DNA of 63,953 nucleotides from Minisyncoccota bacterium (GTDB lineage Bacteria > Patescibacteriota > Minisyncoccia > Phycocordibacterales > CAINVO01). Under the pieces are notes generated by a model. The model did not search any database. It was not told the DNA's origin and saw only the letters and a list, made by a program, of their open reading frames with translations. The position numbers were made by a program, and so were the translations under genes. This document shows, one piece after another, positions 7,409 to 26,556 of this stretch. The stretch is from the NCBI GenBank assembly GCA_028714275.1, contig JAQTMP010000001.1:1-63953 (forward strand), read 5' to 3'. Within the stretch, counting starts at the first letter, position 1, and every line of letters begins with the position of its first letter.

Positions 7409-7544
7409 TATTCTATCTTATTGACAGATTATCGGCTGATTTGTTAGTATACTTTCACATACAGAGAATCAAGTGATTCCCTGCCGGCCCCGCCCACAAG
7501 GCGGGGAATATTTATTTATAAAAGCAATTTTAAAAATAAAATAA

Positions 7545-7618
7545 AATTCTCCAAAAGACCTTTAGAACGGGTTAGCGAGTCTTCGAGCGCTTTAGTGAGA
7601 AAGGTCTTTTGGAGAATT
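7545..7618. repeat. Hairpin element family B, copy 1 (perfect 19-bp stem, 36-nt loop with conserved core)
   Basis: Arms are 7545-7563 and 7600-7618. The loop core gaacgggttagcgagtcttcgagcgctttagtga recurs at 24360-24393 with 1 mismatch. It ends 1 nt from the secY stop codon. Confidence 0.85.
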
Positions 7619-7619
7619 T

Positions 7620-8897
7620 CTAATACTCCCGCATGGAAATCTGAGCATCTATCTTTTTAACAAGATCGAGAACAACTGAAACCACGATCAAGAGCGCGGT
7701 ACCTCCTACAGCTAGAGATTTTGGCACGCCTGGCACAATCAAAGGCAGGATAACGGGCAAAACCGCGATGACACCGAGAAAGATGGCTCCGACAAGGGTA
7801 ATACGAGTAACTACTTTGGATAAATATTCTGAGGTAGGCTCACCTGGACGAATGCCGGGAATGAAAGCGCCGCCTCGTTGGAGATTGGTAGAAATCATGT
7901 GAGGGTCAAATGTGACAGCAGTATAGAAATACGTAAAGAGGAATACGAGCATAAAATAAGCACCGGCATAGACCCACTGGTTGGCTATGATATTCAAAAT
8001 CTGGGTTGAAATACCACTGATAGTGGCATTGCCGAGATGGCTCAAAAGATTGAAAATCATCTGAGGAAAAAGAAGGATAGAGAGGGCGAAGATGATAGGG
8101 ATCACTCCAGCTTGATTGAGGCGAAGAGGGAGGTAAGTAGAGATACCTCCATAAACCTTGTTGCCCCGAACCCGTTTTGAATAAGTGACAGGGAGTGGGC
8201 GCTCAGCTTCGGTCACGATTACTACTAGATAAATAACCACCAAGGTCATGATAAAGACACCAGTGTACATAGGGATCTGACTCTGGTCGAAGCTAAAGAG
8301 GGTTTGGTTGAGAGCTTGAGGAATCCGAGAGACGATACCTGAAAAGATAATCATCGAAACGCCGTTGCCAATGCCAAACTCTGTCATAAGCTCTCCAACC
8401 CACATGAGGAGAATAGAACCAGAGACGATAGTAATAACGTTGGTGATCAAAGAGATGCCTGACAAAGCTCCCACAACCCCCTGTCGCTCCAAGAGCACAA
8501 TAAAACCAAAAGCCTGGATGAAAGCTAGAGGGACGGTCAAAATACGTGAGTATTGACTAAATTTTTTGCGACCAAGCTCCCCCTCCTCTTGATACATAGC
8601 TTTGAGAGTTGGAGACATCATGGTCAAAAGCTGCATGATAATAGAAGCCGTGATATAAGGACCAACACCAAGCATCACAATAGAAAGGGTAGAAAGTCCT
8701 CCACCGGAAAAGACGTTGAGCAAACCAAAAAATTGGTTGCTATTAAAAAATATATTGAGCTTGGCAATATCTACACCTGGGATTGGCACTGCAGCAAGAA
8801 GACGAAAAACTACAAGTGAGCCAAGCATAAAAAGGACTCGGTTGCGCAAAGTCCGATCTTGGATGACCAACTTACATTTTTCGATAAAAGTATTCAT
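7620..8897 (-). CDS. secY: Preprotein translocase subunit SecY
   Basis: 425-aa polytopic membrane protein, follows rplO as in spc operons. Confidence 0.95.
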   Translation of the reverse strand: MNTFIEKCKLVIQDRTLRNRVLFMLGSLVVFRLLAAVPIPGVDIAKLNIFFNSNQFFGLLNVFSGGGLSTLSIVMLGVGPYITASIIMQLLTMMSPTLKAMYQEEGELGRKKFSQYSRILTVPLAFIQAFGFIVLLERQGVVGALSGISLITNVITIVSGSILLMWVGELMTEFGIGNGVSMIIFSGIVSRIPQALNQTLFSFDQSQIPMYTGVFIMTLVVIYLVVIVTEAERPLPVTYSKRVRGNKVYGGISTYLPLRLNQAGVIPIIFALSILLFPQMIFNLLSHLGNATISGISTQILNIIANQWVYAGAYFMLVFLFTYFYTAVTFDPHMISTNLQRGGAFIPGIRPGEPTSEYLSKVVTRITLVGAIFLGVIAVLPVILPLIVPGVPKSLAVGGTALLIVVSVVLDLVKKIDAQISMREY

Positions 8898-24264: not shown

Positions 24265-24307
24265 AAAATCGGCCGCACTTCAATGTGTGCGGCCGATTTT
24301 TTCTTTT
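24265..24307. terminator. Rho-independent terminator hairpin (aaaatcggccgcac / gtgcggccgatttt)
   Basis: 14-bp perfect stem and 8-nt loop, with T-runs on both strands. It lies about 40 nt beyond element B2, downstream of fusA. Confidence 0.65.
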
Positions 24308-24347
24308 CCAATTTTAAAGTATTGTAGAAAATAGAAATAAAAAAACA

Positions 24348-24405
24348 GGAAGGCCTCTCGAACGGGTTAGCGAGTCATCGAGCGCTTTAGTGAGAGAGGC
24401 CTTCC
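24348..24405. repeat. Hairpin element family B, copy 2 (12-bp GC-rich stem flanked by A/T runs, 34-nt conserved loop)
   Basis: Arms are ggaaggcctctc (24348-24359) and gagaggccttcc (24394-24405). The loop matches copy 1 except for 1 nt. It ends 6 nt from the fusA stop codon. Confidence 0.85.
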
Positions 24406-24411
24406 TTTTTT

Positions 24412-26556
24412 TTATTTGCTTCTATTTTCTACAATAGTCTTCTCCACATTTGGAGGGACCACATCGTAGTGGTCAAATTCCATGGTAGCTGAACCTCGTC
24501 CAGCGGTCATAGAACGAAGAGAGGTAGTATAGCCGAACATTTCTGACAATGGCACCATCGCCTTGATGGCTTTATTCATACCGCGATCTTCCATGCCTTC
24601 GATCTGAGCCCGCTTGGCTGAAAGTGAGCCAGTGATGTCTCCCATGAACTGTTCTGGGGTGACCACTTCTACCTTCATGATCGGCTCGAGGATGACAGGG
24701 CGAGCTTTTTTAGCGGCTTCTTGAAAGGCTTGAGAACCGGCAATCTTGTACGCGATTTCGGATGAGTCCACATCGTGATAAGAACCAAAGTTCAAATCAC
24801 AAGAAACGTTGACCATTTTAAATCCAGCCACAATCCCGCGCTCCATCGCTTCGCGAACGCCTTTTTCAACAGCAGGAATAAATTCTTGAGGAATAACCCC
24901 TCCTTTAATATTATCGATAAATTCAAAGTCATCGTAGCGCTTGACATTTTTTGGCACTTTGGCGCCCTCTTCCAATTTTTCAAGAGGTTTGATAGCAATT
25001 TTGACGTGGCCATACTGACCTTTACCTCCAGACTGCTTAATATATTTGTGTTCTGCTTCCGCACTGCCAAGAATAGTCTCTCGATAGGCCACTTGAGGTT
25101 TACCCACGTTGGCTTCTACGCCGAACTCACGCTTCATACGATCCACCATGATTTCAAGATGAAGCTCACCCATACCTGAGATGATAGTTTCCATTGTTTC
25201 GGGGTTGGTTGAGATGCGGAAAGTTGGATCCTCGTCTCCCAATTTTTTAAGAGCCATACCCATTTTTTCTTGATCCGCTTTGGTTTTTGGTTCGATACGG
25301 AGGGAAACCACAGGCTCGGCAAACTTAATAGGGTCGAGCACAATGGGATGATTTTCATCACAAAAAGTATGGGAGGTTTTGGCTTCCTTTAGACCTACAG
25401 CTGCCGCAATTTCTCCGGCAAAAACCTTTTTTACTTCTTCACGCTTGTCGGCTTGAAGGCGCACGATACGGCCAAGACGCTCCTTGTTGCCAGTGGTCGA
25501 GTTGTATAAATATGAGCCGGCTTCGACAGTCCCTGAATAAACACGGAAGAAGGTAAGCTGCCCGACAAACGGATCTGATTGGAGCTTGAAAGCCAAAGCA
25601 GCAAAAGGCTCGCTGTCAGAAGCGTGGCGAACAATCACATCTCCAGTGTTTGGATCGATACCTTGGATTGGGGGAACATCAAGAGGTGAAGGAAGATACT
25701 CCACGACGGCATCAAGGACAAGTTGAACCCCGCGATTCTTCAAAGCCGAGCCGGTAAAGACTGGGAAGATTTTGTTGGCAATCACTCCTTTACGCAAAGT
25801 TGCTTTGAGTTCCTCAATAGTAAACTCGCCGCCTTCGAGGTAACGATTCATCAAGTCTTCATCGAGCTCAACGATCTTTTCAACAAGCTCGGCGCGATAT
25901 TTTTTGGCATCTTCGAGATGAGTAGCTGGGATTTCCATTTCGCGGACATCAATACCCATATCTCCCTCGAAAGCGTAGGCCTTCATTTTCAAAAGATCGA
26001 TAACAGCTTCAAATTTGTCTTCTTCGCCAATAGGCAGCTGCATCCGGACAGCACTTTTATTGAGACGGTCAAGAATAGACCTGAAGGAACGTTCAAAAGA
26101 ACCTCCTGTGCGGTCAAGCTTGTTGATAAAACAAATGCGGGGCACATGATACTTGTCGGCTTGACGCCACACTGTTTCAGATTGAGGCTCTACTCCGGCC
26201 ACACCGTCAAAGACCACCACCCCTCCGTCGAGCACTTTGAGAGAACGCTCCACCTCCACGGTAAAGTCCACGTGTCCTGGTGTGTCAATAATATTAAAAC
26301 GATGTTTCTTGGACTGGTCCTTGCCCATATAGCTTGGATTCCAAAAACAGGTAATAGCAGCAGCTGTAATAGTGATGCCTCGTTCTTTTTCCTGTTCCAT
26401 CCAGTCAGTGACAGCTTCACCTTCATGCACTTCACCAATCTTGTGGCTCATGCCTGTGTAATAAAGAATGCGCTCAGACGTAGTGGTCTTGCCAGCGTCG
26501 ATGTGAGCAATGATACCAAAGTTTCGGGTTTTTTCGAGTGAATAGTCGCGTTCCAT
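24412..26556 (-). CDS. fusA: Elongation factor G
   Basis: [20 protein letters not shown] and NKLD motifs. 714 aa. Confidence 0.98.

Follow-up and report, generated by a model that had tools for sequence, protein, structure and literature searches.

MITEs and related palindromic repeats (Correia/NEMIS, ERIC, RUP, and RPE), which sit at gene boundaries and can act as terminators, are small, non-coding, hairpin-forming, multi-copy, and patchily distributed (PMC3184786), and the repeat family described here, referred to as family B, resembles them in being all of the latter. MITEs share terminal inverted repeats, usually together with target-site duplications, whereas family B copies share only a hairpin tip of 27–34 nt and a pyrimidine/purine rule over ~5 bp of the adjoining stem, and no direct repeat of the target-site duplication type was seen at the borders of their palindromes, which are fuzzy. 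REP, BIME, and REPIN sequences are similarly extragenic palindromes, often lying downstream of genes and present in many copies, but the REP stem is itself conserved and has a GTAG-type head, whereas the arms of family B are unique to each copy, and neither a RAYT nor a Y1 gene was found in any of eight carrier genomes tested. The insertion sequences IS1397 and ISKpn1 target the loops of REP units, and class C and attC-associated group II introns target the stem-loops of terminators and attC sites; these hairpin-targeting elements are kilobase-sized and autonomous and encode their own enzyme. Family B is like them in that the target is a stem-loop rather than a primary sequence and in the use of terminators as safe landing sites, but it measures 27–34 nt, has no coding capacity, and lands at the exact apex.

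In rRNA, IVS and the short ORF-less insertions of CPR bacteria are alike in that an extended hairpin replaces the loop of a native helix, with a patchy and apparently horizontal distribution. CPR rRNA insertions are found mostly at the tops or bases of stem-loops, and the short ORF-less ones that are not introns are uncharacterized (PMC11270868). An extended hairpin that replaces an rRNA helix loop occurs in a single family B copy, in helix 40 of the 16S rRNA gene of genome G033, whereas most copies sit on the terminators of protein genes and the stem is supplied by the host site. Intrastrand template switching is a known mutational process at quasipalindromes, which turns imperfect inverted repeats into perfect ones and can lengthen the stretch over which the arms are identical (PMC7202029, PMC3820800). 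It has been described as a mechanism of point-mutation hotspots and not as one that maintains or spreads a repeat family; its role in family B, if it has one, would account for perfect, Watson-Crick-only, growing arms and for the inverted copies of coding ends reported below.

Two Copies at secY and fusA

The window, that is, the whole stretch of 63,953 nt analyzed here (contig JAQTMP010000001.1 of a Minisyncoccota bacterium), contains the 34-nt core GAACGGGTTAGCGAGTC(T/A)TCGAGCGCTTTAGTGA exactly twice, both times on the + strand, and a match to it arose in 0 of 100 shuffles. The adjoining ORFs are identified by Pfam as SecY (7620–8897) and EF-G (24412–26556), both on the minus strand. The parts of the two copies are as follows.

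7544–7563: left arm of copy 1, 20 bp, perfect and private, its own partner arm being the sole other match in the genome
7565–7598, + strand: core of copy 1, 34 nt, T at position 18, antisense to secY
7600–7619: right arm of copy 1, abutting the secY stop codon (7620–7622, minus strand)
24321–24346: outer left arm of copy 2, an imperfect inverted copy of the fusA 3' end plus an A-tract (ATTGTAGAAAATAGAA-ATAAAAAAA)
24347–24359: inner left arm of copy 2, 13 bp, perfect, GC-rich
24360–24393, + strand: core of copy 2, 34 nt, A at position 18, antisense to fusA
24394–24406: inner right arm of copy 2, partner of 24347–24359
24407–24435: outer right arm of copy 2, with a T-run, the fusA stop codon (24412–24414), and the last seven fusA codons

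The identity of the two cores after secY and fusA, which an initial annotation had pointed out from the sequence alone, was confirmed, as was its claim that an unrelated perfect stem closes each of them (20 bp at secY and 13 bp at fusA). In copy 1, the bases beside the core (A7564 and G7599) are unpaired. In copy 2, A- and T-runs flank the 13-bp stem and an imperfect outer palindrome spans 24321–24435. The fusA gene ends by encoding IVENRSK*, in agreement with the EF-G C-termini of relatives, and the gene side is therefore the original and the left outer arm the inverted copy. Since secY and fusA lie on the minus strand, their mRNAs would carry the reverse complement of the core as quoted here.

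The terminator-like shape proposed in the same annotation is also borne out, since on the gene strand a GC-containing stem is followed by a T-run just past the gene (...CCTGTTTTTTTATTT at fusA and ...GAATTTTATTTTATTTTT at secY, where TTTTATTTTATTTTT comes after the hairpin), and at fusA a T-run follows on both strands. The loops of 34–36 nt exceed the 3–8 nt of the short-loop terminator criterion, and a consensus terminator scan consequently does not call these sites. The whole hairpins fold more stably than shuffled sequences (z −4.7 to −6.5); the core with 5 bp of stem folds no better than shuffles under standard DNA parameters, so that the stability of the whole elements is due to the arms, and the core itself may fold into a continuation of the helix. 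At the gathering thresholds of Rfam, there were no matches in the window, and a relaxed E-value returned only far sub-threshold hairpins of the miRNA type. A suggested echo between the arms of copy 1 and the inner arms of another hairpin family (family A) did not hold up, because it rests on TCTCCAAAA, a word 7-fold over-represented genome-wide. The window genome contains this word 50 times against ~7.5 expected; its reverse complement, TTTTGGAGA, includes a Shine-Dalgarno-like GGAG, and the word forms the inner arms of family A.

Two other features lie close to these hairpins. In the secY-adk spacer, antisense to both genes (7421–7515, + strand), a promoter-like TTGACA-18-TAGTAT with an extended −10 TG (7421–7450) is followed after ~40 nt by a GC-rich terminator-like hairpin with a T-rich tail (7488–7506), and, judged by sequence, the pair could specify a small antisense transcript. 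Downstream of fusA, the plain terminator of the convergent gene (24265–24300, + strand; L027) is orthologous between the window genome, G000, and its congener G001, where the outer stem AAAATCGG/CCGATTTT is conserved and the inner stem has been altered by compensatory substitutions; it provides a yardstick for the evolution of ordinary terminators at this place.

Anatomy and Distribution of the Family

The window genome G000 is a fragmented metagenome assembly of 742 kb in 68 contigs with 44% GC, and the genome-wide search for the core that the initial annotation had proposed found seven full copies and one half copy in it. The seven cores vary at position 18 (A, T, or C), and the copy after pth has in addition a G-to-A change at position 31. 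Every full copy in G000 is closed by a perfect inverted repeat that occurs nowhere else in the genome, and across copies the perfect arms measure 13–36 bp and end in A-tracts and T-tracts. The half copy (the 3' 24 nt plus the right arm; contig C20, 4640–4800) adjoins a member of an ordinary MITE-like family with conserved arms that G000 also possesses (ttatattacatattgagaaaaag, with a 17-nt loop); its right arm now pairs with a downstream segment, and the arrangement looks like a nested insertion or a rearrangement. At least three other families in G000 are built like family B, with a conserved core and long private arms, and the similarity of the family B core to families A, C, and D is not significant (best p ~0.05 of 24 tests).

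A covariance model (R1) built from 11 copies, which retrieved a diverged copy from G001 that had been withheld as a control, was used to search 401 genomes of the order and found family B in 12 of them, belonging to 7 of 223 genera, with 1–11 copies each. The model did not confirm a decayed remnant that had been suspected by eye in the rpoC-dnaG spacer of G001. The usual core in relatives is 27 nt long, GARCGGGTTAGCG-A/T-AGCGCTTTAGYGA, with the consensus GA(A/G)CGGGTTAGCG-(A/T)-AGCGCTTTAG(T/C)GA, and the 34-nt form of the window consists of this sequence with seven additional bases at the apex.

From its base upwards, the core has a tandem G·A, two Watson-Crick pairs, a 5 × 3 internal loop (GGGTT/TTA), a 4-bp helix (AGCG/CGCT), and a variable apex. 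Among ~43 copies, the tandem G1·A34/A2·G33 is nearly invariant, in agreement with the purine juxtaposition remarked on in the initial annotation; ~40 copies retain it, and one has two T-A pairs instead. Pair 3:32 alternates many times between A-T and G-C, and pair 4:31 is usually C-G, with T-A in four copies, three of which have A at position 31. The inner 4-bp helix (P2) never varies and is thus without covariation support. The bases beside the tandem G·A read Y-GA-R on both strands, and the five stem pairs next to the core almost always have a pyrimidine on the 5' side and a purine on the 3' side. A kink-turn reading was rejected, as the tandem G·A abuts the stem on both strands without a three-nucleotide bulge. 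Overall, 97% of cells are paired and the covariation score was reached by 0 of 500 shuffles, with most of this signal coming from the private arms; a hand count of the arm mismatches put ~23 as G·T-compatible on the core-sense side against ~12 for the antisense strand, a difference that is not decisive. In the 27-nt form, the apical sequence is GCGAAGC or GCGTAGC, which resembles the mini-hairpin DNA d(GCGNAGC), with the sole variable apex base falling on N (PMC13037366). Most 27-nt copies have this motif (GCGNAGC or GCGNNAGC) at their apex, and the 34-nt copies of the window lack it, their apex being expanded to GCG-AGTCNTCG-AGC. An alternative register with the AGCG/CGCT helix and a 3-nt loop is equally possible for the 27-nt form, and standard folding cannot model the mini-hairpin motif.

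Genomic Context and Orientation

Every family B copy is the tip of a copy-specific palindrome, and most of these palindromes resemble terminators and lie directly against a stop codon. For 42 copies, the gene context was assigned in core-sense orientation: 16 lie between tandem genes with the core antisense and 6 between tandem genes with the core sense, 9 between convergent genes, 7 between divergent gene starts (some of these calls possibly resting on spurious ORFs), and 4 at a contig edge or in rRNA. The right arm has a stop codon within 12 nt in 20 cases, the left arm in 5 (p = 0.004), so that the core is usually antisense to the gene it abuts. The orientation relative to the upstream gene that the initial annotation saw as common to the two window copies therefore reflects a family-wide trend, although not a fixed rule, as in G000 rpoC and a pilin-like gene are each followed by a core in sense orientation. 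The annotation's tie to essential genes and gene ends is not supported, with copies lying between divergent genes (L017/L023), as an opposed pair in one spacer of G001, and in a 16S rRNA gene. No replication-strand bias was found when strands were assigned by GC skew on the 562-kb contig of G277 and the 284-kb contig of G213, the core sequence being that of the lagging strand in 8 cases and of the leading strand in 5.

The copy in the 16S rRNA gene of G033 is located at the tip of an elongated helix 40, a position that bears other extensions or large insertions in relatives. Helix 40 of 16S rRNA is a general insertion hotspot in the order (L055, L057, L058, L060, and L062; G008, G009, G010, G006, and G004), and in these five genes it has its own elongated hairpin in two genomes and a large unrelated insertion in three. 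In G000, a tRNA-like sequence recognized by eye, with a Glu-type anticodon loop TTCTCAA, lies ~110 nt downstream of the family B copy at a PBP gene (contig C13).

Arms and Tips at Orthologous Sites

More distant relatives carry plain palindromic terminators after fusA and secY, composed of an A-tract, a GC stem, a loop of 3–5 nt, and a T-tract, with arms of 13–21 bp. In closer relatives, the hairpins compare site by site as follows.

fusA end: family B in G000; a D-like tip in congener G001, on a palindrome that copies G001's own fusA end
PBP-gene end: a 34-nt family B tip in G000; a family B tip of the 34-nt type in G001 at the same position and orientation, with five changes and completely different arms
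Spacer L091: two family B copies in opposite orientations in G001; a short spacer without a hairpin in G000
G213:103664: family B on a palindrome in G213; a plain terminator in G277
G213:30606: family B in G213; a D-like element with other arms in G277
G277:239027: a family B tip in G277; a D-like tip on the same arms (AAAATAGCTCT/AGAGCTATTTTGTTT) in G213, with the upstream gene end aligning

These comparisons contradict the expectation of the initial annotation that the loop would be kept among close relatives, given the five changes at the PBP site of the congener and the other tip family at its fusA site. The PBP genes of G000 and G001 both end by encoding QLPPDR*, and the distal arm of the G000 hairpin is an inverted copy of that coding end. 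In spacer L091 of G001 (1369–1546), the two copies are ~90 nt apart, each has its own perfect arms of 21–27 bp, and one of them is the copy with T-A pairs in place of the tandem G·A. Gene DNA of G000 and G001 is only ~70–75% identical, and arm homology between these two genomes is therefore uninformative. More can be read from the gene end at G277:239027, for which eight genomes of the genus show one intact family B tip, one truncated family B tip on homologous arms (G402), five D-like tips, with arms that range from partly homologous to different, and one case without a hairpin (L155–L162); at this gene end, the D-like family seems older or more successful than family B. The occurrence of different tips on the same arms, as in G277 and G213, implies that arms can be inherited while tips are replaced and that the tip is the moving unit, and at the level of sequence it was shown that tips of different families replace one another on one orthologous hairpin. 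Among the sites compared, none had identical arms closed by a plain loop in one genome and tipped with family B in a second; the closest approach is the same arms with a different tip.

The palindromes that carry family B also differ in size from the ordinary hairpins of the genome. In G000, 102 plain hairpins (stems of 10 bp or more, loops of 11 nt or fewer) have arms mostly of 10–17 bp located 1–50 nt past stop codons, and of the 50 close to a stop, only 6 extend into coding sequence. Perfect arms of family B in the same genome have a median of 20 bp compared with 12 bp in the plain hairpins (p = 0.0002), and the palindromes abut or overlap stop codons, with the distal arms at both fusA and the PBP gene being inverted copies of native coding ends.

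Metagenome hosts that are 64–73% identical to G000 in gene DNA carry cores identical to those of G000, whereas the PBP-site copy shared vertically with G001 has drifted by five changes; together with the patchy distribution, this argues for recent horizontal movement rather than ancient conservation. Scans of public genome and metagenome collections with the exact pattern found five true loci, the remaining matches being chance ones inside coding sequences of unrelated bacteria. Viral contigs contained no copy of either core form, and an exact look-up of SecY and EF-G for strain variants returned no record. The transposase domain Y1_Tnp (PF01797) was absent from all eight family-B-bearing genomes tested and present in two genomes without family B and in 6 of 14 control genomes, which indicates that the search works.

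Origin of the Hairpin Tips

Family B is probably a very small, non-coding, horizontally mobile hairpin-tip module of 27–34 nt that resides at the apical loop of host hairpins, and a tip module of this size in a few ultra-small bacteria has apparently not been described before. The module would occupy the apical loop of hairpins native to the host locus, mostly intrinsic and often bidirectional terminators and once a 16S rRNA helix, and because the hairpins belong to the locus, the stems are private to each copy. The core only lengthens the hairpin, so that the composite would still terminate transcription of its gene, and from sequence it is probably for this reason that the tip is tolerated. 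After arrival of a tip, the palindrome may be kept perfect and extend outward by intrastrand template switching (quasipalindrome correction), in which a copy of the flank on the gene side would replace the non-coding one, and the large structured loop may keep such long palindromes viable. The favored guess for the transfer itself is that copy-choice takes place from one hairpin to another by way of the short pyrimidine/purine inner stem, and a structure-specific enzyme would serve equally well as the agent; the five pyrimidine/purine stem pairs beside the core either travel with the tip or reflect the choice of target. Pairing runs continuously from the arms into the core with no visible remnant of a former loop, which counts against a hairpin-tip module since simple loop insertion does not predict seamless pairing, and the 20:5 orientation bias is not accounted for by this model.

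The seamless junction between core and arms, without loop remnants, is what would be expected if the element made its own arms, by inserting next to a gene end and priming fold-back (snap-back) synthesis from the core hairpin, which copies the flank and thereby creates the palindrome. Such an origin would also suit the distal arms at fusA and the PBP gene, which are inverted native coding ends, the length of the arms in excess of plain terminators, and the two long-armed copies of G001 that fill a spacer which is short and free of hairpins in G000. It is nevertheless considered unlikely, because arms can predate the tip, as seen from the same arms with different tips (G277/G213) and from the truncated family B on homologous arms (G402), because arms usually show the A-tract/GC stem/T-tract layout of plain terminators at orthologous sites, and because the 16S copy uses a native rRNA helix. 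The orientation bias, tied to the abutting gene (20:5) and not to replication (8:5), suits instead a constraint at the RNA level or one linked to transcription, and would be consistent with a dedicated protein-binding or RNase-directing RNA loop on housekeeping-gene terminators, acting as a cis-regulatory or mRNA-stability signal. Conservation of the tandem G·A and the asymmetric internal loop across genera, covariation of pairs 3:32 and 4:31, and the closeness of most copies to stop codons point the same way. This interpretation is nonetheless given a low probability: the family occurs in just 12 of 401 genomes of the order, the sets of genes that carry it vary among genomes and both orientations occur, copies lie between divergent genes, as an opposed pair in one spacer, and inside 16S rRNA, and the same site in congeners bears another tip family, a plain terminator, or nothing. 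In addition, it is the antisense core that most mRNAs would contain, and there the G·A pairs become C·U and U·C.

A hairpin-shaped, multi-copy, intergenic repeat could also be a REP/REPIN-like or IS200/IS605-derived palindrome mobilized by a Y1 (HUH) transposase that works on hairpins of single-stranded DNA, and the very stable mini-hairpin motif GCGNAGC of the core-sense 27-nt form, with its tandem G·A in a Y-GA-R context (PMC13037366), would fit such a substrate. This possibility is held to be very improbable in view of arms that are not conserved from copy to copy, the lack of a replication-strand bias (8 vs. 5), and the absence of PF01797 from all 8 carriers tested, though it is found in 2 genomes without family B and in 6 of 14 controls. 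The fragmented nature of the window genome (68 contigs from a metagenome) raises the question of chimeric inverted duplications produced by assembly or amplification, but an artefact of this kind deserves next to no credence and is refuted by recurrence in independent assemblies, with the same core in 12 of them and in 4 metagenome contigs of other samples, always as hairpin tips, and with orthologous copies in congeners.

It is conceivable, although the proposal is tentative and at present doubtful, that hairpin tips form a class of mobile element in which several unrelated families, among them B and the D-like tips, are in competition for the ends of host terminator and rRNA hairpins and pass between hairpins when replication switches template at a few bases of homology in the inner stem, without a dedicated transposase, and that the same process seeds the short helix-tip insertions of CPR rRNA and drives the growth of palindromes at gene ends.

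Implications for Ultra-Small Genomes

In family B, conservation and mobility reside in the loop and the long stems are the host's own, which is the inverse of the arrangement in MITEs and REPs. Tip elements of this kind would escape both repeat finders that seek shared inverted repeats and terminator finders built around short loops. Should tips move by copy-choice, they would represent a way for DNA to spread without a transposase and a natural system for the study of template switching. As far as sequence can indicate, tip-bearing hairpins may mark the ends of transcription units in genomes that have no experimental data, and the tip family links the abundant long gene-end palindromes of ultra-small CPR genomes with the uncharacterized short insertions at the helix tips of their rRNA.
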